Source: Phycisphaerae bacterium (lineage in GTDB: Bacteria > Planctomycetota > Phycisphaerae > SM23-33). Taken from it: 64,000 nt of DNA. The DNA lies in contig JAFGEJ010000200.1 of NCBI GenBank assembly GCA_016931655.1, positions 6,015 to 70,014 of the forward strand, given 5' to 3'. The stretch's first letter is position 1. Each line of letters starts with the position of its first letter. Of the stretch, positions 3,001-40,754 are shown piece after piece. A program made the translations under genes and the position numbers. Below the pieces are notes generated by a model. It saw nothing but the letters and a program-made list of their open reading frames with translations, searched no databases and had not been told where the DNA came from.

Positions 3001-4513
3001 ACAACAGGAACTTCAGCAAATGCGACTGGCTCTCCTGGGGCGGTATATCGATTCCGATCAGTACGACAATGCCGTTGCGGGTTATCAGAAGATGATTCAG
3101 GCCGATCCGGAGGACGCCCAGGCCCGGCTGGGGCTGGGGTTGGCGTATCTGGAGAATGACCAGCTCAATCAGGCCGAGGAACAGTTTACCGAGGCGATCA
3201 AAATCCAGTCGGATCTGCCCAACGCCTATCTACTTCGATCCCGCGTGTACCAGTCCAAAATGGAACTTTCCAGAGCCGCCGCGGATATTGCCGCCTGCGC
3301 GGACTTAACGGGGAACGTCGAACAAAAAATGGATTTGGCGAGAATTTACGAAGCCATGAACGATTTCCAGCAGGCCGGCCGAATCTATGACACGATTATT
3401 GCCGACAACCCCGAGTATTTTAACGCATATGAAAAACTGCTGAATCTGTTCCGCCAGCAGAAGCGATGGAGCGCCCTGGAAGCTCTGGCGAACAAGGGAA
3501 TGGACGTTTTTCCCGAAATTCCCGCGTTTGCCCTGCAACTGGCCGCCGCCGCGGAAGAACAAGGCGACAAGGATTCGCAGCGGCATTGGCTGGAGCGAGC
3601 GGCGGAAACAGCGCCCGATGCCATAAGTGTGGTGCGACGCTATTGGGTGCATCTTCTGGAGAACCGGGACTACATTCGGCTGCAGCGGGAGGCGCAGAAA
3701 TACGGCCGGCGACCGGCGCAGACCTTCGGCGCCCAGGCGGTTCTGGCCGCCGCCCAGGCCAAACAAAATCCCGGCGACGCCAAATCCTTCCAGGCGCTTC
3801 TGTCTCTCCTCCAGTCCGCGAAAAATTCCACGGATGTGTATTTTGTGGGACATCTGTTTGAAGAAGCTTACGGCTCGGCAAAGATCGCTTCGGCGTCTTC
3901 CGACATATTGAAGGCGAGACCCGAAGACTGGAATCTCCATGCTTTTCTTGGGGACGTATGCCTTCAGGAAAAACAGTACCGCCAGGCGGAGCGTTATTAT
4001 CAAGAGGCGTTGAAATTATGTAAAAACACGTCCGGCCAGATTACTCTGAATCTGCGTTTGGCACAATTGTATAGCAGCGAAGGCGCGTATCCCAAGGTTG
4101 AAGAGCAATACCTTGCCGTGTTGAAAAACAACCCCAACCACAGAATGGCACTGAACAATCTTGCGTATACATACATTGATCAGTTGAATCGTCCCGAAGA
4201 GGGGCTCAAACTGATCCAGCGGGTAATGAAAGCCACTCCCGGTGATCCGAACCTGGTGGACACCTATGCCTGGGCGCTGGTGAAACTGGAGCGGTTTGAA
4301 GAAGCCCGCGCGATGTTCGAAAAGGTGGTGGAAATCGGCGGCGCCGGCGGCGCCGAGCGGTTGTATCACATGGGATACGTTCTGGAAAAAACCGATTCCC
4401 CACGGGAAGCGGAAAGATATTACCGGCAGGCGCTGGAAGTCGCCCGCGCCCAGAAAAACGTGGAACTTCAGGCGACGATTGAAACCGCCATGGCGAGAGT
4501 CGAGCGGAAATGA
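59..4513 (+). CDS. Very large TPR-repeat protein (over 1480 aa). First in-window start is TTG at 59, but the frame stays open back to nt 2, so the gene may be 5'-partial.
   Basis: Single 4.4-kb ORF whose translation is a long run of TPR-like helical repeats (the track sequence reads like many ~34-aa A/L/Y-rich helical repeats, which I did not enumerate). There is no in-frame stop upstream of 59. Its stop is 17 nt before the next gene, which has AAGGAG ahead of it. Confidence 0.75.
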   Translation: MTVFRHLGTAIRNSQDQAAADLLFREAELRFERLRRDLDLSRPQQDELRQRGWQALEQAVRKDGRHLKARKMLADLRGTVAQYNPDSSKAWLEYIEELDGVLAVDPQDAAIYFRRGQAYAHLAMTDPQQQNKAVEDFRKAVELDKTKVEYWDALARYLVSIDRISEAEQTFREAIQANPNKAMLRVSYARLLRGQKRLEEANKLTQEAIQCEPSSPLGYLDQAGDLIRGRKFDPAEEVLEKARQIDKTDPQVYAQFVTLYRLKKDLPAADRIVREGIAALDQKDAEAEPDDKMAALRRGQTRAILNYLLAEVLLDQYALSKDEKEKEKLLQESKERLEVLETLSPNQLQQHQIAGRISYYEQKWPEARESLEKVVEYDTTPRTAMLLLNVYRRLGIPGQSEKLAENFLKRRISPRVRLLFLLELAQLQLDLREYDKAQELVHQAEKIDSKNENIKRLQQALNVYRGKTTEVLSEEGDAGRVARAMLFRRVQDLILNDQYDQAETVLETMLQHNPHDLQALAQLLALLMESQKRDKALEWLSKSRALDPENEDLKRFEDLLKESSMEKRYAIEMGYVDRAPTEDKLNKALQKWNIARRYRREEDARNYLDEAEAIDPNNSIVVNLRFRQALAGENWTAAEELIERIPEGESGYLRNLRRAELAMARGEAETAGRKKEQADAQYTKALSYLQNVVEAAPHLPAPRLLMAESYLRLGKREDARKQFRECYENNRQNLQAVVGLAQLAQDTGRYAERNRWIEEAYQIPSGKADPYVREQYLQILESDPKNLGEVIHKREQVLKHDPDNLINAFRLAAAYEKSGQINRAQEMIEYLYQRTPNKITIAPMLADLYLRMKQPLKADEMFSDLLKDAKTAVEKADIRIAYGDFLARNDEDAAVRMYEKAVAEEGEDGTHGLRALSNFRAAQAQFLASRGKTTESQTRWKESIDLLQTVIKRLQKSVDSLQAKADGDPSNSAAQQNLTRAQQELQQMRLALLGRYIDSDQYDNAVAGYQKMIQADPEDAQARLGLGLAYLENDQLNQAEEQFTEAIKIQSDLPNAYLLRSRVYQSKMELSRAAADIAACADLTGNVEQKMDLARIYEAMNDFQQAGRIYDTIIADNPEYFNAYEKLLNLFRQQKRWSALEALANKGMDVFPEIPAFALQLAAAAEEQGDKDSQRHWLERAAETAPDAISVVRRYWVHLLENRDYIRLQREAQKYGRRPAQTFGAQAVLAAAQAKQNPGDAKSFQALLSLLQSAKNSTDVYFVGHLFEEAYGSAKIASASSDILKARPEDWNLHAFLGDVCLQEKQYRQAERYYQEALKLCKNTSGQITLNLRLAQLYSSEGAYPKVEEQYLAVLKNNPNHRMALNNLAYTYIDQLNRPEEGLKLIQRVMKATPGDPNLVDTYAWALVKLERFEEARAMFEKVVEIGGAGGAERLYHMGYVLEKTDSPREAERYYRQALEVARAQKNVELQATIETAMARVERK

Positions 4514-4529: not shown

Positions 4530-6791
4530 ATGAGTCTGGTGCCGACCCGAAAAGAGACGCCACAGATCGTTCCGGCCGGGCGGGGTGTGCCGCTTTCCGC
4601 GGGGCCCCGGGCGCCGGGTCCCTCCGCGCCGGCCGGCGGAGGCGCCGGGATCACCGGAAAAGACATTCTTCGAATGCTTCGCCGGCGCAAGTGGATGATC
4701 ATTCTCTCGGTGTTCATTTTTACCGTGGCGGCAGGCGTCTCAACGTGGTTGTGGCTGATGTATGCGCCGTTGTACACCTCCAGCGCGTTTTTAAAGGTCA
4801 ATCCCCCCAAGGCCTCGGAAATGCACGCGGGGAATCAGTTTTTGGGCGAGGACATCATGGAGCGTCTGATGATGACGTATGCCCAGGCGTCGGCATCGGA
4901 AAAGGTGCTTGGCGAGGCGGCCAAGGCGCTCATTCACACGCACTGGTACAGTGAAGCCAACCAGGCCGGGTCCGACCCCGTGCAGGTGCTGATGAAGGAA
5001 GTCAGCATCGGCATGGTACCCAAAACCAGTCTGCTTCGCGTATCCATGACCGGCCAGGATCGAAATGAAATTACGGAAATTGTCAACGCCGTTGCCACCG
5101 CGGCGGAAAAAGACTCCCAAACGGATGCCGGTGACGCGCATAACCAGGCGATCCTTCGAATACAAGCCGAAAGAAAGAGCATGGAAAATGTTCGCGACGA
5201 AAACGCGAATAAAATCCAGGCTCTGCAGGAACGAGGTCTGGGCGGCGAAGCCGTCGAATCCCGGGCGACCATTGCCTACAAACAAGGAGCATATGTATCA
5301 ACGCTCTCTCAACTGACGGAAGAATTCAAGCAGGTGGCGAAGGCCTGGGACAACATCAAAGGATTGACGGATGAAGAATTGGCCCAGCAGCCGGAAGTGC
5401 AGCAAATGCTGAACGCAGACCCGGAACTGCAACAGCTTCGCTATCGTGTTTTGGGTTTGAAAATTGATCTGGCCGCGATGAAAGATCGTTTCGGTCCGAA
5501 CCACAAATCCATCATCCGACTGGAAACAGCCTTAAGCAGTGCTCAGGAGTTACTGGAACAAAAGAAACAGGAATTGACTCAGCAGAATGTCCAACAACTC
5601 AAAATTCTGCGAGAAAACGATTTTCTGCAGAGGCAGGAAGCGATCATCGAGCTGGGCAACAAGATTAAAGACCTGGACGAGAAACTCAAAACCCTGGAAA
5701 AACAGGAAAATGAGTTACTCCGCGCCAAGGAAAACGAAGACGCCGCCGAGGAAAGCATCGCCGAAATGGATGCGCGCCTCATGGACCTGCGCATGTTGAT
5801 GCAGGGGGAACGACCACTGGTGCTGTATCGTCGCGCCATGCCCCCGCGGGAACCCTCCACGCCGAAATATATCATCATGATCCCCGCCGGTGTAATGCTG
5901 GGGCTGGTTCTGGGCGTTGGGTTGGCGTTTCTGCTGGAGTTCCTCGACACGTCCATCAAGGCTCCCTCGGACGTTTCGCGGCGGGTGGACCTGCCCCTGT
6001 TGGGCATGATCCCGCACCTGGACGACGTCGAGGAAGACATCGAGGACATGCGCCTGGCGTTCCTGACGAATCCCAAAGCCATCATTTCCGAAGCCTTTCG
6101 CCAGACCCGAACCACCCTGATGTTCAGTGGGACGGCCGAGCAGCGCAAAAGCATCCTGATCTCCAGCGCCATGCCCGAAGACGGGCGCACGACGGTGGCG
6201 CTGAATCTCGCTCACGCCATTGTCTCCGGCGGGAAAAAGGTGCTCGTGGTGGACGCCAATTTCCGCCAGCCCATGATCCGAACGCTGTTTCCCCAGTGTC
6301 CTGACGGCGGCCTTTCCACCGCCCTGGTCGGACAGGCCGACTGGCGCAGTCTGGTGCACGAGGTGGAAGAGAACCTGTACGTGATGGCGTCGGGTCCTCA
6401 GCCGCCGAATCCCGCCGACCTGCTCGGATCCGGCCAGATGCGCAGGCAGATCGAGGAATTCTGCGAGGAATACGACCAGATCCTTTTTGACAGCAGCCCG
6501 TGTCTCGTTGTTTCCGACGCGGTGACTCTCAGTACCATGGTGGAAGGCGCGATCCTCGTGGTCCGGGCGGGCGTCAATACATATGGCATCGTCCAGCGGG
6601 CGCGCGACATGATTACCCGTCTGGGTACGCCGATTTTCGGCGTGATCTTGAACGGCGTGCGCGTCACCGCCGGCGGGTACCTGCGAAAGAACTACGAAAC
6701 GTTCTACGAGTATCGCGAGCAGCCCAAACTCGCCGCCGCGGAGGTTGGCGCCGATACGACGGCGACAGAGACCGCCGAGGAAGAGGAATAA
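4530..6791 (+). CDS. Polysaccharide co-polymerase / tyrosine autokinase (Wzc/GumC-like BY-kinase) with an N-terminal transmembrane domain and a C-terminal P-loop kinase
   Basis: ATG at 4530 is preceded by AAGGAG. The track ORF 4296..6791 overlaps the TPR gene and its real start is internal. TM helix WMIILSVFIFTVAAGVSTWLWLM, then long coiled-coil. Walker-A-like ISSAMPEDGRTTVALNLAHAIVSGGKKVLVVDANFRQP and a DxxP-like FDSSPCLVVSDAV motif. C-terminal Tyr cluster YLRKNYETFYEY. Confidence 0.75.
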   Translation: MSLVPTRKETPQIVPAGRGVPLSAGPRAPGPSAPAGGGAGITGKDILRMLRRRKWMIILSVFIFTVAAGVSTWLWLMYAPLYTSSAFLKVNPPKASEMHAGNQFLGEDIMERLMMTYAQASASEKVLGEAAKALIHTHWYSEANQAGSDPVQVLMKEVSIGMVPKTSLLRVSMTGQDRNEITEIVNAVATAAEKDSQTDAGDAHNQAILRIQAERKSMENVRDENANKIQALQERGLGGEAVESRATIAYKQGAYVSTLSQLTEEFKQVAKAWDNIKGLTDEELAQQPEVQQMLNADPELQQLRYRVLGLKIDLAAMKDRFGPNHKSIIRLETALSSAQELLEQKKQELTQQNVQQLKILRENDFLQRQEAIIELGNKIKDLDEKLKTLEKQENELLRAKENEDAAEESIAEMDARLMDLRMLMQGERPLVLYRRAMPPREPSTPKYIIMIPAGVMLGLVLGVGLAFLLEFLDTSIKAPSDVSRRVDLPLLGMIPHLDDVEEDIEDMRLAFLTNPKAIISEAFRQTRTTLMFSGTAEQRKSILISSAMPEDGRTTVALNLAHAIVSGGKKVLVVDANFRQPMIRTLFPQCPDGGLSTALVGQADWRSLVHEVEENLYVMASGPQPPNPADLLGSGQMRRQIEEFCEEYDQILFDSSPCLVVSDAVTLSTMVEGAILVVRAGVNTYGIVQRARDMITRLGTPIFGVILNGVRVTAGGYLRKNYETFYEYREQPKLAAAEVGADTTATETAEEEE

Positions 6792-9850: not shown

Positions 9851-10074
9851 AATACGTCTCCTTTGTGTGAGAGGGTCACGTGCAATTTCAGGCGCCCTCG
9901 TGTGTGTATGGCGTGGGCCGGCACATACAAAATACGCGGAGAGCCGTCGCCCCCGTTTCGGAGTCCCCCACGGCGGCTCCCCATAGTCTTTCATAGGATT
10001 TCTCGCCGCCGGGGAGAGGATTTTTGCGAAGTTTTTTTTGAGGGGGAGGCAGATTAATCCGAAATTTTCATTGA

Positions 10075-10154
<80 letters not shown>

Positions 10155-10161
10155 ATCCGGG

Positions 10162-11115
10162 TTAATGTCTCAGGCAGGCTTCGTCGTCGCATTCGGTGGC
10201 GGAGTCGATCAGTTCCTCCATGGTCGTCAAGGCCACGCAGATGGACGTGTCGGCGGCGCCGTAGTAGATCTTCACCTCGCCGTCGTCCTCGACGATCGCG
10301 CCGCAGGCGAAGCAGACGTTTCCCACGTCCCCCACGCGCTCGTAGTCGGTTCGCGGGCTGAGCAGCGGTTCCAGGCATCGGCCTATGACCTTCGAGGGAT
10401 CGTTCAGGTCGAGCATCACCGCCCCGATGCGGTAGATCGGCCCGGCGGAGGTCATTTTCACGCCGTGATAGATTTCCAGCCAGCCCTTGTCGGTTTTGAT
10501 CGGCGGCGCGGAGGCGCCGATACGATACTGATCCCAGAACCGCGGGCGCGGGCCGAGCACGTAGTCGCTTTTGCCCCAGTGTTTCAGGTCCGGCGAGTAG
10601 GAAATCCAGATCGCCCCCACGCCGTACCCGAAGGGCCGGTCCAGGCGGGCGTACAGGCCGTTGACCTTTTCGGGGAACAGCACGCCGTCCTTGTTGCCCG
10701 GTTCGGAGACGATGGCGATGCGCTCGTAATGGTGGAAGTCCTCGGTCTTTGCCAGAGCGATGTAATGTCCGTATCCGCTTACCGCCGTGTACATGATGTA
10801 GTATTCCCCCTCGATAACGGTCAGACGGGGGTCTTCGATGCCGTTTTCCTCCCACGAGCGCCAGGGTTCCTGACTGGCTGGGAGCATGCAGGGGCTTTTT
10901 TCCATCTCGAAGTGCAAGCCGTCGCCGCTGCGGGCCAGCGTGAAGAAGGAATACCCCTGCTGTCCCTCGATGCGGATGAGCAGATAATACTCGCCGTCCA
11001 CTTTCACGGGCGTTCCGTTGAAAACGGTGTTGCAGCGGAAGGGCACGTCCTGGAGCGTCAGGATCGGGTTGCGTTCCCATCGGTGCAGCCGGTCGGTTCC
11101 GTGTCGAATAATCAT
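10162..11115 (-). CDS. GH130-family glycoside phosphorylase-like protein (beta-mannoside phosphorylase superfamily)
   Basis: 317 aa, no signal peptide, five-bladed beta-propeller GH130/DUF377-like sequence (RNPILT...GEYYLLIRIEG...DPRLTVIEGEYYIMYTA...). Its start overlaps the upstream paralog's stop by 4 nt. Confidence 0.65.
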   Translation of the reverse strand: MIIRHGTDRLHRWERNPILTLQDVPFRCNTVFNGTPVKVDGEYYLLIRIEGQQGYSFFTLARSGDGLHFEMEKSPCMLPASQEPWRSWEENGIEDPRLTVIEGEYYIMYTAVSGYGHYIALAKTEDFHHYERIAIVSEPGNKDGVLFPEKVNGLYARLDRPFGYGVGAIWISYSPDLKHWGKSDYVLGPRPRFWDQYRIGASAPPIKTDKGWLEIYHGVKMTSAGPIYRIGAVMLDLNDPSKVIGRCLEPLLSPRTDYERVGDVGNVCFACGAIVEDDGEVKIYYGAADTSICVALTTMEELIDSATECDDEACLRH

Positions 11116-12104
11116 TCGTCTTCGTCCTCCGCGTCCCCGCTGAGGTAATCCTGCACGACGGCGCAGGCGAGGCAGAATTCCGCGATTTCATCAATGCGGG
11201 CCGTACCGAGGCAGATGCAGCTGTTGCTCGCGCCGTAGTAAATCCACAGTTCGTGTTCGTGGAGAATCGCCCCGCAGGAAAAGACCATGTTGGGTACGTC
11301 GCCGATGCGCTCGTAGACCTCGCGCGGGCCGATGATCGGGATGTTTGAACGGGCGATGACCTTGGAGGGATCGTCGCGGTCGAGGATGGCGGCTCCCAGT
11401 CGCACGAGCGGCCCGGCGGAGGTGTCCTTCGCGCCGTAGTAGATCAGCAGCCAGCCCTGTTCGATTTCAATGGGAATCGCCGCGGCGCCGATGCGGCTGG
11501 AGTCCCAGTGCCCGCCGCGCGTGGTCATCACGACTTTTTCGTCGCCCCAGTAGGCCAGGTCTTCGGAATAACTGATCCAGATATCCCCGCCGGCGGGTCG
11601 TTTCAGCAGGGCGTATCGGCCGTCGAATTTGCAGGGGAACAGCGCGCCGTTTTTCACGTCCGGCTGGGAGACGTATCCGAGGAACTCGATGGTGTCCCAG
11701 TCGGTGGTGGCGGCCAGCCCCAGCCGCAGGCCGAACTCGCTGTCGGCGAGGTAGGTGATGTAGTACTTTCCGTCCAGGGGCGTGATGCGCGGGTCGCGAA
11801 TGCCGAACGTTTCGTACTGGGCGCGCGGGCCTTCCTTCGGCGGCTGAAGGAACGGCGTGGGGTCCACGGTGAAATTGATGCCGTCCTGGCTGCGGGCGCG
11901 ATAAAACAGATTGTGCCCCTGAAGGCTCTCCACGTTCAGGAGCATCATCAGCTCGCCGTTCCGCCGCACCACGCCGGCGTTGTGGATGTCCGCCACGCGG
12001 AAAGACAGATCCTCCAGGGCAATCAACGGATTGCCCTTCCAGCGATGAATAATGTCAGGACCAGTGGACAGCGACATGTTCGATTTGCCTTTCCGTACCA
12101 ACAC
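11112..12104 (-). CDS. GH130-family glycoside phosphorylase-like protein, tandem paralog
   Basis: 330 aa, collinear with 10162..11115 (GNPLIALEDL...GIRDPRITPLDGKYYITYLA...). The start may be the internal MSLS at 12077. Confidence 0.65.
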   Translation of the reverse strand: MLVRKGKSNMSLSTGPDIIHRWKGNPLIALEDLSFRVADIHNAGVVRRNGELMMLLNVESLQGHNLFYRARSQDGINFTVDPTPFLQPPKEGPRAQYETFGIRDPRITPLDGKYYITYLADSEFGLRLGLAATTDWDTIEFLGYVSQPDVKNGALFPCKFDGRYALLKRPAGGDIWISYSEDLAYWGDEKVVMTTRGGHWDSSRIGAAAIPIEIEQGWLLIYYGAKDTSAGPLVRLGAAILDRDDPSKVIARSNIPIIGPREVYERIGDVPNMVFSCGAILHEHELWIYYGASNSCICLGTARIDEIAEFCLACAVVQDYLSGDAEDEDE

Positions 12105-12190
12105 AGACGGGATATACAGATTCCGTATCTTATTATCGGCAAATCCGGGCGGGGGGTTGACTTACGAATTTCTTGAGACAAAGATGTGGC

Positions 12191-12349
12191 GAAGAGAACA
12201 CGAATTACGCGAATAAAGACGAATTTCACGAATATTTTTTTAAATAGAAAATGTCGCCCTCTGGAACATTCCTTCCGTAGACGATTTGTTTTTTTTATCA
12301 GGAAAATTCGTAACTATTCGTCTTTATTCGCGTAATTCGTGTTCTCTTG
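12191..12349. repeat. Perfect 33-bp inverted repeat pair flanking a roughly 91-bp AT-rich spacer
   Basis: Left arm AAGAGAACACGAATTACGCGAATAAAGACGAAT (12192-12224) is the exact reverse complement of the right arm at 12316-12348. The spacer contains TTCACGAAT. The region ends 6 nt from the LolA-like gene's stop. Confidence 0.85.
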
Positions 12350-12354
12350 AAATG

Positions 12355-13188
12355 TTATTGTTCCAGCCGCTGGACGATCAGCTCAAAGCCGGCCGGTTTG
12401 GGCACGTTAAAAAGTTTCGGGTCGATTTTGGCGTCGGTTTTGGTGTTCGTGAAGGTAACGGTCTTGATGTTCTCGTTCTCGTCGCGGGCGATCAGTTTGA
12501 CCGGCAGGTCGGTTTTGCGGCTGATCCACATCTCCAGGCGGTTGAAGTTCACGTCCTTTTCCTTGCCCGGCAGGGGGGTGAGTTTCAGATAGTCGGTGTC
12601 GGGGGGATCGGACGGGTCGGGATTTCGCGTCCGGGCCTGCAGAAGGGCCAGCACGTCATTGGTCTTTTGGCCGAAGGGCACGGGGAAAGGCCCCTTGCCG
12701 ATCTTGAGCGGTTCTATTTTCTCGCCCTCCGCCGCCACCTGCCATTGCGTGCGGGTTTTGGTGTTGTATTGGTCCTTGGTGACGAATCGGCCGTCAAAAA
12801 CGTAGTCCACCTGGTTTCGTGTTTCCGGGCCTTCCTCCAGGCGGAGCGTCTGGAAATTCACGCGGAATTTGGCCGGCTGATCCTTCGTTTCCTTCTGATA
12901 CGCCGCCCAGCCGGTGCGCTGCTCCTTCTCGCCCGTCATGCGGTTGACGACTTCGTAGCGGATGTCTGTTCGCAGCGTGGTGAAGGCGTCGCCGGCCTTC
13001 TCCAGGCGATCCAGAATCGCCCGGGCCGGGGCGTCCGTGGGATTCGCGACGGGCGCCGCGGGCTTGTCCGCCTTTTTCGCCTCCGGCTGGGAAGCGTCCT
13101 TTTTGGCGTTGAGTTTCTCTTCCCCACAGGCCAGGTTGACCAGGCACAGCGATACCACCAACGCGTATGTCATCGACATTTTATTCAT
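12355..13188 (-). CDS. Secreted lipoprotein, LolA-like outer-membrane lipoprotein-sorting fold (tentative)
   Basis: MNKMSMTYALVVSLCLVNLACGEE signal peptide with lipobox. 277 aa, K/T-rich, predicted beta-rich. Confidence 0.45.
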   Translation of the reverse strand: MNKMSMTYALVVSLCLVNLACGEEKLNAKKDASQPEAKKADKPAAPVANPTDAPARAILDRLEKAGDAFTTLRTDIRYEVVNRMTGEKEQRTGWAAYQKETKDQPAKFRVNFQTLRLEEGPETRNQVDYVFDGRFVTKDQYNTKTRTQWQVAAEGEKIEPLKIGKGPFPVPFGQKTNDVLALLQARTRNPDPSDPPDTDYLKLTPLPGKEKDVNFNRLEMWISRKTDLPVKLIARDENENIKTVTFTNTKTDAKIDPKLFNVPKPAGFELIVQRLEQ

Positions 13189-14117: not shown

Positions 14118-14203
14118 GCCACAAAGGACACAAAGGTCTCAAAGTAAAAAACAACAAAAGGGTTTTGTTTTTCTTCTTTGTGACCTTTGTGCTCTTTGTG
14201 GCG
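14118..14203. repeat. Long hairpin, CACAAAG variant of the CACAGAG family, in the divergent promoter region between the DedA-like and ferredoxin genes
   Basis: GCCACAAAGGACACAAAGGTCTCAAAG, AT-rich loop, CTTTGTGACCTTTGTGCTCTTTGTGGC. Confidence 0.75.
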
Positions 14204-14710: not shown

Positions 14711-14789
14711 AAAACGACGAAAGCACCGCCAAGGCGCTTCCGTCGCCTGGTTTTCCTCGTAATTGCAATTGAGAATTCTAAAAGACCTA

Positions 14790-14863
14790 CCACAGAGACA
14801 CAGAGGTCACAGAGAAAAACATAAAAAATTAGGTCTTTCTCTTTGCTCTCTGTGTCTCTGTGG
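14790..14863. repeat. Long hairpin of the CACAGAG family, in bidirectional-terminator position between fdx (+) and tRNA-Leu (-)
   Basis: CCACAGAGACACAGAGGTCACAGAGAAA, loop, TTTCTCTTTGCTCTCTGTGTCTCTGTGG. Confidence 0.75.
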
Positions 14864-14904
14864 TAAAAATTCCTTTTTTTCAGAGGTCTCAATTCAAAAA
14901 CCAC

Positions 14905-14990
14905 TGCCCGGGACTGGATTTGAACCAGCATGAGGTATAAACCTCACCAGGCCCTCAACCTGGCGCGTCTGCCAATTCCGCCACCCGGGC
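14905..14990 (-). tRNA. tRNA-Leu (anticodon GAG), type II with long variable arm
   Basis: Reverse complement reads GCCCGGGTGGCGGAATTGGCAGACGCGCCAGGTTGAGGGCCTGG-TGAGGTTTATACCTCAT-GCTGGTTCAAATCCAGTCCCGGGCA. Acceptor 7 bp, anticodon loop UUGAGGG, long variable stem-loop, T-loop TTCAAAT. Confidence 0.85.
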
Positions 14991-15053: not shown

Positions 15054-15196
15054 TGAGCGACCGGACTTTCCGGCATAAAGAAAAAAACAGAAAATCCGAC
15101 ACCCCTTGGGGGCAGGCTCCGTTCCTGAGAGACAGAGAAGATATAGATGATGAAAAAAATTAAAAAAATCTTCTCAGTTCCTCAGTTTCTCTGTGT
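15054..15196. repeat. About 140-bp intergenic repeat, copy 2 of 2 (first copy at 9025..9165)
   Basis: Near-identical to 9025..9165, including TGAGCGACCGGA..., GAAAATCCGACACCCCTTGGGGGCAGGCTCCGTTCCTGAGAGACAGAGAAGATATAGA and ...ATCTTCTCAGTTCCTCAGTTTCTCTGTGT. Confidence 0.8.
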
Positions 15197-15272
15197 CGCG
15201 TTTTTTACGCGCCCACAGGGCTCAGGGCGATCAGAAAGTTGCCGCCGGGAAAAAGGTCGCTTACCGGGAAGA

Positions 15273-18568: not shown

Positions 18569-18902
18569 GCAATCACGTTCCTCGCGCAAGAAAGGGCCTT
18601 CCGAACACTCGTTTCAGGGGATATTCTATCCTCCCAGCCGCGGCGTGTCCAAACAACTCCCCGCGAGTGGAATTTGTAAGCCGTCTGAGATCCTATTGTG
18701 AGGACTACGACCTTTTATCCCAAATCACACTGTTGAGAAATCATCCACGGATTACACTGATTTTTTAGAGATTTCACGGATTCCTTCTATAATTTTGTGA
18801 AAATATCTTTTCCGTGTAATCCGTTTTTTCATTCGTGAAACTTGCCTACCGGCAGGTAGGTCCGTGGACTCTTTTTACAGACAGCATAACCGCGAAAGAA
18901 AT

Positions 18903-24097: not shown

Positions 24098-24219
24098 TGT
24101 CATCCTGAGCGAAGGCCCGAACGAAGTGAGGGCCGCAGTCGAAGGATCTAAAGCCTCAAAAGCATCAGGTCCTTCGACTGCGGGGCTCGCTCTGCTCGCC
24201 CCTCCGCTCAGGATGACAA
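24098..24219. repeat. MITE/REP-like palindromic element, copy 2 of 3
   Basis: TGTCATCCTGAGCGAAGGCCCGAACGAAGTGAGG...GTCGAAGGATC ... GGTCCTTCGAC...CCGCTCAGGATGACAAT. Confidence 0.8.
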
Positions 24220-26315: not shown

Positions 26316-26977
26316 GGCCGGTGCGCGAACTTCCCTCCCGGACCCTCCGAGGCCCGACGCTCTTTGGATGATCTTTCCGGAGCACGTTCACTTCGACTTC
26401 GGATTTGCTTTCCCCTCCGGCACGTGTTTTTGGTCCGCGCCGTTCCCCGCGGACAGGGGTAACGGGATGTATGCGCATCGGAGGGAGCGCCACGGGGCTC
26501 CGATCCACGGAGCCCCGATGTTTTTTGGCTCATCCGGTTTTCGCGTGCGCGGTAGTGGGAGCATGGCGGGGTGAAAATCTCGGCGAGGCCCTTCCGCCCG
26601 CAAAATTTTTTAAAAAGTCCCCACCCGCCTGGTTCGCGGACTCACCCGATTTTCCGGTCTACCCGCCGAGATTTTCACCATCCCGCAACGAGCAAAACGC
26701 ATGGGTCTTGACTGAAAATTGGGGGCCGTCTTCGGCAACACAGGGGCTTTTGGTAAAAACATTTTCAGACAAAAGGGCCCCATGCGTTTTGCGACCAGGG
26801 GGAAATCATGCTGAACAATACACACCTCCGCGCACGCGAAAACCGGATAAGCCTGAAAAACCCCTTCTTTGCGCAAAGTTTTCCCCCGCCCATGCCGATG
26901 TACCATGTGGAATCGGCTAGGCGGCGTTCACGTATCCACGCGGGGTCCCGTTGGCGGACCCCAGAGGAAATCCGCAC

Positions 26978-35606: not shown

Positions 35607-35691
35607 CGACACAGAGTTCCTGAGAAACAGAGAAAAGAAGAGAAACGTTCTTTTCTAAAGGTATTCTCTGTTCCTCTGGAACTCTGTGTCG
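35607..35691. repeat. Long hairpin of the CACAGAG family in a divergent promoter region
   Basis: CGACACAGAGTTCCTGAGAAACAGAGAA, loop, TTCTCTGTTCCTCTGGAACTCTGTGTCG. Confidence 0.75.
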
Positions 35692-40620: not shown

Positions 40621-40754
40621 GTTGTCATCCTGAGCGAAGTCGCGTGTGAGCGAAGCGAACATCGCGACGAAGTCGAAGGACCTTATGGGATTGAGGAGGC
40701 GAGGTCCTTCGGCTTCGACTCTCGCTACGCTCGAGTCTTCGCTCAGGATGACAA
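40621..40754. repeat. MITE/REP-like palindromic element, copy 3 of 3, inserted between hom and the apgM-like gene
   Basis: GTTGTCATCCTGAGCGAAGTCGCG...GAAGTCGAAGGACC ... GGTCCTTCGGCTTCGAC...GTCTTCGCTCAGGATGACAA. Confidence 0.8.

Follow-up and report, generated by a model that had tools for sequence, protein, structure and literature searches.

A palindrome of helically phased heptamers downstream of a LolA-like gene as a candidate gene-less relative of GxxExxY-bearing cassettes

The 64-kb stretch of DNA analysed here (the window) contains, between a LolA-like gene and a GH130 gene, an inverted repeat of 157 bp in total, at 12192-12348, with arms of 33 bp. With moderate confidence, we regard this element as a non-autonomous, REPIN-like member of a family of palindromic cassettes that carry a nuclease gene in their full-length form. 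Comparisons at the sequence level demonstrate its membership of the family, the copying of such elements as whole units, the termini that it has in common with gene-bearing copies, and its presence or absence between relatives.

Results

The inverted repeat consists of phased heptamer arrays

In a repeat search of the window, the arms at 12192-12224 and 12316-12348 were complementary at 33 of 33 positions and 91 nt apart. A perfect 33-bp inverted repeat with a 91-nt spacer had been described in a first-pass annotation and is borne out, whereas the span given there, 12191-12349, includes one base too many at either end, since the g/g at 12191 and 12349 is not paired. The left arm, on the plus strand, begins with the terminus AAGAGAAC, followed by the heptamers CACGAAT, CGCGAAT and GACGAAT, spaced 9 and 10 bp apart, and the right arm, on the minus strand, is its exact reverse complement.

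Each array continues inward with a fourth unit. In the left array this is CACGAAT at 12227-12233 (plus strand), followed by a T-run at 12235-12241, and in the right array it is TACGAAT at 12306-12312 (minus strand), the partner of which is one base out of register and which forms an 8-bp inner helix in the predicted fold. The CGAAT cores of the left array start at 12201, 12210, 12220 and 12229, giving spacings of 9, 10 and 9 bp, whereas those of the right array are 9, 10 and 10 bp, so that the fourth unit extends the repeat slightly out of register. The unit consensus over the four units of each arm, 9-10 bp apart, is C(A/G)CGAAT. The AT-rich centre at 12234-12305, which has no strand, is gene-less, and the equivalent position in full-length relatives is occupied by a GxxExxY gene. 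A solitary ACGAAT on the plus strand at 12164-12169 is located beyond the element, 36 bp away from the unit that opens the left array, and 7 of the 38 ACGAAT sites of the window sit inside 177 bp at the element. The GC content of the element region (0.35-0.39, compared to 0.60 for the window) agrees with its earlier description as AT-rich.

Within the window, a search with the 33-mer allowing up to three mismatches retrieved only the two arms, and matches were obtained in 0 of 100 shuffles, in line with the earlier judgement that an exact repeat of this length is improbable by chance. These shuffles, the occurrence of the family in independent assemblies numbering in the hundreds, isolate and long-read chromosomes among them, and the orthologous copies in other metagenome-assembled genomes (MAGs) reduce a chance palindrome or an assembly artefact to a negligible probability; the origin of the sequence from a MAG is the one point that would favour it.

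The predicted folding energy of the single strand is -74 kcal/mol for RNA (z -9.7) and -43.9 kcal/mol for DNA (z -10.3). The cruciform or hairpin potential noted earlier is thus real, while the arms exhibit no covariation beyond the family consensus. No Rfam family matched the element at the gathering threshold, and the relaxed matches were spurious long-hairpin miRNA models (40 bits vs 211). A promoter and terminator scan identified neither a sigma-70-like site nor an intrinsic terminator at the element, the stem of which is AT-rich and is followed by GAAATG / CGCCAC, not by a U-run.

Gene-less copies of the same subtype occupy operon gaps

A metagenome scan with the pattern AGAGAACRCGAAT-N4-CGAAT-N5-CGAAT retrieved 82 contigs with the subtype of the window element, mostly with a GC content of 0.55-0.68. 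In related genomes resembling Phycisphaerae, the subtype is dispersed in multiple copies. The termini of this subtype are AAGAGAAC[A/G]CGAAT...ATTCG[C/T]GTTCTCTT, and they are shared by 21 complete gene-less copies of 99-192 bp, namely the window copy and 20 others. In the gene-less copies, four units are followed by a T-run, as in the window copy, which has the subtype's termini, three to four units per arm at 9-10 bp, polarity, intergenic position, AT-rich centre and proximity to a stop codon.

The gene-less copies often occupy successive intergenic gaps in operons. Three copies lie between fliP/Q/R-like genes on one contig (L195), a yidD-like gene is flanked by two copies on another (L174), and the ATP synthase operon of a Phycisphaerae MAG contains two (L114). 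The atp sites before atpD and atpA recur across lineages (L008, ~3541-4100; L114, 3839-3970 and 6820-6956). Alignment of the copies in L195 extends from AAGAGAAC to GTTCTCTT only, loops included, and the flanks of the three are unrelated, indicating that the element is copied as a whole unit of arms and loop.

The first-pass annotation had suggested looking for direct-repeat target duplications. None was found on reading the flanks by eye, either at the window element, which lies between ...GTGGCG and GAAATG..., or at the 20 other copies. The 33-mer itself, for which a search had likewise been suggested, is unique in the window and its exact form is absent from all loci retrieved in the genome and metagenome scans, yet the family to which it belongs is dispersed elsewhere.

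In some CGAAT elements, the loop contains small GC-rich hairpins, GGCGGGGCTCCGTCCCGCC / GTGGCGGAG...CTCCGCCAC (L126, ~730-775; L182, ~1480-1560; L202, ~2470-2550; L203, ~1770-1900). They have the appearance of an independent second family of repeats that either targets these loops or is tolerant of them.

The element is retained at the LolA-GH130 locus of several lineages

On the minus strand, the LolA-like gene (12355-13188) is followed by 6 nt, the element, a spacer of about 90-110 nt, a GH130 gene (11112-12104) and a probable second GH130 gene. The repeat accordingly lies directly downstream of the LolA-like gene, 6 nt past its stop codon, as had been noted. The Pfam LolA match of this gene is weak, and its product is 100% identical to an NCBI Phycisphaerae MAG protein named LolA (P0001). 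The first GH130 gene is on the minus strand, and the probable second one (10162-11115) is proposed by its likeness to the relatives L203 and L204. Were the element transcribed as part of the lolA-like mRNA, the boundary between the lolA-like operon and the GH130 genes would carry a 3' hairpin of very high stability.

A comparison of orthologous loci, also suggested in the first-pass annotation, covered MAG or metagenome contigs and a few isolates, and it revealed the element at the same site in three relatives and an element-free site in others. Elements of the same subtype occupy the LolA-GH130 spacer in L203, where LolA is 68% identical and the element measures about 300 bp and encloses nested GC-rich hairpins, and in L204 (67%; about 110 bp), whereas the spacer of L202 (78%) contains a decayed element. 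In L220/L221 (48%), the order MacB-ABC-VTT-LolA-GH130-GH130 is kept and the spacer of 102 nt contains no element; the element is absent from L219 (64%) too, but synteny is broken there. As traced through these alignments, the element was present at the LolA-GH130 locus in the common ancestor of several lineages. Its presence in L202, L203 and L204 and absence in L220/L221 imply that it was gained, or lost, within the clade and then long kept.

The same comparison bears on the earlier proposal that the repeat serves as a dedicated operator or attenuator of the downstream GH130 genes. The position upstream of GH130 and its conservation in three relatives fit this proposal, but elements of the identical type stand at unrelated atp, fliPQR-like, yidD and mla loci, L220/L221 have the same gene order with a 102-nt gap and no element, and Rfam yields no match, which together make such a role very improbable. 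Furthermore, a separate conserved block on the minus strand, …GATTTGCCGATAA.A.TA.GGA…GTATATACC, was recognised by eye between the element and the GH130 start codon (12105-12160; L203, ~1945-2030; L204, ~4965-5050). This block, which lies outside the element, is probably the GH130 promoter or leader, and it gave no match in the sigma-70 consensus scan. A 33-mer found only here and conserved in synteny had been named as what would mark a regulatory structure rather than mobile DNA, and on this point the outcome is mixed: the 33-mer is unique and three relatives have the element in a syntenic position, but the family is dispersed.

Motif and phasing, rather than pairing, are conserved

In an alignment of 18 family copies, the AAGAGAAC terminus and the CGAA cores were invariant. 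The arms were 92.3% paired, compared to 91.9 ± 0.5 after the partners had been shuffled among the copies, with 147 of 500 shuffles at or above the observed value. The covariation score of the arms in these 18 copies equalled the shuffled mean, and a permutation test on the ten variable arm positions gave p = 0.49. A conserved RNA structure was therefore rejected as the primary explanation, since arm pairing is no higher than with shuffled partners. With pairing at the shuffled level and the termini and cores invariant, it is motif and phasing, not pairing, that selection or copying has preserved, which points to recognition at the DNA level.

The window copy is the extreme of arm pairing (33/33). 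Both of its arms contain a TACG spacer variant that no other copy has, which suggests a recent arm-to-arm homogenisation.

Phased CGAAT arrays are widespread and have a fixed polarity

In a scan of 185,579 species, each represented by a single genome, the pattern of four CGAAT units spaced 9/10/9-10 bp (20 specified bases) was found at no fewer than 119 loci, compared to about 2 expected by chance in our estimate, which assumes equal base frequencies. Among the matches listed, the phyla include Planctomycetota, Bacteroidota, Chloroflexota, Beta-/Deltaproteobacteria, Spirochaetota, Acidobacteriota, Gemmatimonadota, Elusimicrobiota, WOR-3 and others, and unspecified flanking bases are conserved, CGAAT being preceded by (C)AC and the first unit by AAC. 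In several genomes, among them Sulfuricella MAGs and an Anaerolineae MAG, copies are numerous.

The polarity of the arrays is constant. Among the matches listed, all 55 array pairs no more than 400 bp apart, the window included, consist of a CGAAT array followed by an ATTCG array; in the metagenome set, 32 pairs have this '+ then -' order and 4 the opposite, the latter lying between neighbouring elements. The purine-rich reading is always on the 5' arm, with three to four heptamers per arm, about one per helical turn. Clustering of the ORFs near the 119 loci listed disclosed no recurring transposase or regulator; GxxExxY ORFs surfaced instead.

Two variations on this architecture were observed. 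In the Anaerolineae MAG TC202112 (L019, L024, L032, L033 and L112), a larger multi-copy element has the CGAAT palindrome as its core and an outer inverted repeat of its own, GGTGTATTTCAGTTTGGGGGCGAG..., and is found on at least five contigs. Expanded arrays of 8-17 units (ATTCGCAAMG, GGAAAGTC or CGAAT) occur at L128 582-911, L013 6721-7119, L086 3784-3933 and L031 3-161, so that the number of units is highly variable, as slippage would predict.

Gene-bearing cassettes enclose a GxxExxY gene

Wherever two CGAAT arrays stand 366-388 bp apart, the gap is filled by an ORF of about 125 amino acids that encodes a GxxExxY protein (TIGR04256 at E values of 1e-35 to 1e-43; PF13366, PDDEXK_3, at 1e-38). 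In four loci (L169, L188, L187 and L205), the GxxExxY gene lies between arms of the window's subtype with the same termini. The L205 cassette is inserted between mlaE and mlaF in the MAG GCA_016929245.1, which also contains gene-less copies (two in L114, and L204). The mlaE-mlaF site is occupied by a GxxExxY cassette in three relatives; the array unit is CGAAT in two of them (L205 and L187) and CACGGAT in the third (L228). The loops of gene-less copies might be remnants left by deletion of the gene; T/A-runs are all that they have in common with the inner flanks in L205 or L169. The 64-kb window contains no GxxExxY-like ORF.

In the GxxExxY alignment, E41, D80, E90 and K92 are invariant, and the AlphaFold model is confident (pLDDT 92.5). 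From profile matches and a fold search, GxxExxY is predicted to have a Cas4/RecB-like PD-(D/E)XK fold. A sequence search of the PDB with GxxExxY returned no match, nor did a DNA search of a phage database with a viral-contig cassette. In a survey of PD-(D/E)XK families, the function of PF13366 is listed as 'Unknown' (PMC3424549). In the part of the literature that was searchable, GxxExxY was mentioned only in passing, in three papers, and no description was found under the unit sequences, GxxExxY, PF13366 or Planctomycetes palindromes. The widespread intergenic palindrome family of phased heptamers has apparently not been described before.

Other contents of the cassettes were also seen. At L161 (696-1213), arms of the window's subtype enclose a 135-residue ORF (MKPLSGIEINKLPLHDAG...) without a Pfam match in place of GxxExxY, and this cassette is flanked in turn by CACAAAG / ATCTGTG units; the cargo is therefore not always a nuclease. 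The cassettes in L129, L144 and L013 contain non-coding inserts only.

The architecture, and not the heptamer, accompanies the nuclease gene

The generality of this arrangement was assessed with 11 GxxExxY genes picked regardless of CGAAT (three from exact-protein look-ups, six from viral-contig loci and two from additional look-ups), a small sample that includes an archaeon and viral contigs. Ten of the 11 genes are bracketed by inverted arrays of two to four phased units, and the heptamer differs among them: CGAAT in L205, CACCGAT in L206, CACGGAG in L212 (the archaeon Methanorbis), CACGAA in L213, CGCAGAA in L214, CCAGATGAA in L215, CGGAAT in L217, CACGGAT in both L218 and L228, and C(A/G)AATGAA in L226. 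The remaining gene, from Labilibacter sediminis (L227), has a palindrome on one side only. Two further GxxExxY genes, far from a CGAAT match, are flanked by CAGGAT and CGCAAAG arrays.

The protein sequence does not follow the unit sequence. Mean protein identity is 41.6% within the CGAAT-linked GxxExxY proteins and 41.1% between these and the others, and proteins that are 74-76% identical, at the same fimbrial-operon site of related contigs, are bracketed by CACGAA, CGCAGAA, CCAGATGAA or CGGAAT arrays. Simple sequence-specific recognition of the heptamer by the nuclease was rejected on both grounds. Since close nucleases are associated with different heptamers, the enzyme probably reads the architecture and not the unit sequence.

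The units of an element agree throughout, on one arm as on the other, which is the signature of concerted evolution, most simply by slippage in the arrays together with arm-to-arm conversion. Alternatively, palindromes of differing types could have been nested stepwise around a resident gene, and nested elements do occur (L161, L129, L215 and L217). At a given site, the rate of divergence of GxxExxY genes is about that of the neighbouring genes. Taken together with the retention of the element in relatives with 67-78% LolA identity, this divergence gives the residence of the elements the appearance of being long-term and largely vertical.

Discussion

A proposed non-autonomous partner of a nuclease-bearing cassette

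The reading that we favour for the window element is that gene-less copies would be non-autonomous relatives of the nuclease-bearing cassette, as REPINs are to RAYT genes. The nuclease may create, copy or maintain them in trans, with host repair or replication, and it may read the architecture, whether as a phased array, a palindrome or a cruciform, while slippage and arm-to-arm conversion would keep the units of one element alike. An action of GxxExxY on the arrays, and any chemistry of homing or transposition, are inferred.

On a wider scale, we tentatively propose, as a possibility somewhat short of even, a so far unrecognised class of element found across prokaryotes, in which a minimal Cas4-like GxxExxY gene sits at the dyad of a helically phased palindrome, gene-less copies colonise the gaps of operons, and units are alike within an element and differ between orthologous elements. 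If this is true, the class would involve a structure-reading nuclease and a mechanism regenerating or homogenising the repeats that has not been seen in REP/RAYT, MITE or homing systems. The proposal links a large protein family with a function listed as unknown, a phased-heptamer architecture and gene-less copies in the spacers of housekeeping operons, the last ranging over Phycisphaerae, Bacteroidota, Chloroflexota, Proteobacteria, a methanogen and viral contigs. A functional link would give GxxExxY/PF13366 a testable role, would represent a second, independent REPIN-like relationship between a genome and a nuclease, and would explain many AT-rich hairpins left blank by annotation pipelines. 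The homogeneity of units within an element, against their divergence between orthologues, in itself constitutes a testable case of concerted evolution on a 10-bp scale.

Comparison with known systems

Among interspersed bacterial palindromes, to our knowledge, only REP/RAYT has a known enzyme partner. The REP/REPIN-RAYT system is the closest known in logic, with differences in size, tag, class of enzyme and internal structure. Both comprise many short intergenic palindromes and one small nuclease-type gene flanked by the same repeats that are scattered without the gene, and both combine a long-term, largely vertical residence with hairpins in transcripts. REP/REPIN sequences are palindromes of 20-40 bp with a GTAG or CGTC tag (PMC3733652), whereas the window element has the ends AAGAGAAC/GTTCTCTT and a length of 157 bp; in the present family, the arms are arrays of phased heptamers of 33-45 bp, the unit sequence of which changes between lineages. 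RAYT, which cleaves REP DNA in single-stranded form, is a tyrosine transposase of the HUH class (PMC3733652, PMC3116915), whereas the gene flanked in the relatives studied here is a PF13366/TIGR04256 PD-(D/E)XK gene.

Of the options raised in the first-pass annotation, a miniature mobile element has come closest, given the dispersed multi-copy family, the sharp shared termini and the gene-bearing relatives. The part of that option which does not hold is the classical MITE, a deletion derivative of an insertion sequence that would be moved by a DDE or other known transposase recognising the 33-bp terminal inverted repeats. The elements resemble MITEs in their terminal inverted repeats, small size (100-200 bp), AT-rich, non-coding interior, dispersed multi-copy intergenic distribution and longer gene-bearing form with the same ends. 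A classical MITE is nevertheless improbable, because target-site duplications were found in 0 of 21 copies, no recurring transposase was detected near the 119 loci listed, the longer forms contain GxxExxY or an ORF without a Pfam match, the sole recurring enclosed gene encodes the 125-residue PD-(D/E)XK protein and no known transposase, and the arms are internally repetitive heptamer arrays with a unit sequence that differs between lineages.

Three further systems share single features with the elements. Free-standing homing endonuclease genes include PD-(D/E)XK types such as I-Ssp6803I, and they have in common with the cassettes a small nuclease gene located between conserved operon genes and present or absent among relatives. 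We know of no bracketing repeat arrays and no gene-less multi-copy partner for homing genes, both of which are found here, and no cleavage site is known for the cassettes. The parC arrays bound by ParR are plasmid partition sites composed of direct repeats with a known binding protein. Iterons and parC resemble the elements in having short units once per helical turn, in two sets around a centre, but the sets described here are inverted, chromosomal and multi-copy and have no known binder. Intervening sequences of 23S rRNA, for example that of Coxiella with S23p, contain a small ORF in an inverted repeat (PMC4990558). Common to both systems is a small selfish gene that is tolerated in essential transcription units and lies between inverted repeats which can pair in the RNA. 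The intervening sequences, in contrast, reside in rRNA helices and encode another protein family, and phased repeats have not been described for them, whereas the present elements lie between protein-coding genes.

Further palindromes in the window and the possibility of a host function

Five further gene-less palindromes, each with three phased units per arm, an A/T-run and a short loop, were identified in the window: two with CACAGAG units (10071-10152 and 14788-14865), one with CACAAAG units (14118-14202) and two with CAGAG-like units (35607-35691 and ~15118-15207). Palindromes of phased units appeared in 0 of 20 shuffles of the window. One of the five abuts the tRNA gene at 14905-14990.

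The presence of several heptamer types together in one 64-kb window is among the observations that would fit an element serving the host. Phased heptamers may bind a host DNA-binding or nucleoid protein, or the hairpin may act as an mRNA 3'-end stabiliser, an RNase III site or an insulator, as proposed for REP/BIME, in which case the GxxExxY genes would be opportunistic inserts into palindromes. The location of copies directly past stop codons and between operon genes, the very stable hairpin and the retention of the element at the LolA-GH130 site across lineages are consistent with such a function, as are the one-turn phasing, which turns all units to the same side of the duplex, a feature of protein-binding arrays, and the failure of the nuclease sequence to follow the heptamer. 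However, the same architecture is found in Bacteria, an archaeon and viral contigs, for which no common host factor is known, and GxxExxY is the only protein that travels with the arrays. In addition, the arms lack pairing covariation, a terminator with a U-run is absent, and the element is missing from a relative that has kept the operon order. We consider a host-serving element the main alternative, though rather unlikely.

The first-pass annotation had also pointed to a related motif set at 18740-18830. The set is real but loose: in the divergent intergenic region at 18740-18836, CACGGAT occurs twice in direct orientation at a distance of 29 nt, and AATCCGT (inverted) and ATTCGTG occur once each. 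As CACGGAT brackets GxxExxY in L218 and L228, this set may be a decayed member of the family.

A separate palindrome family, with arms starting TGTCATCCTGAGCGAAG, is represented in the window at 24098-24218 and 40622-40754, with arms of 57 nt at 79% complementarity and 23 nt at 91%, respectively; a related string, gtcattccgaccgaggg..., is nested inside the L013 cassette. Finally, a 37-nt inverted repeat (TTTTTTGGCTCATCCGGTTTTCGCGTGCGCGGTAGTG) at 26521-26557 and 26823-26859, 86% complementary and with 265 nt between its arms, is unrelated to the heptamer family.
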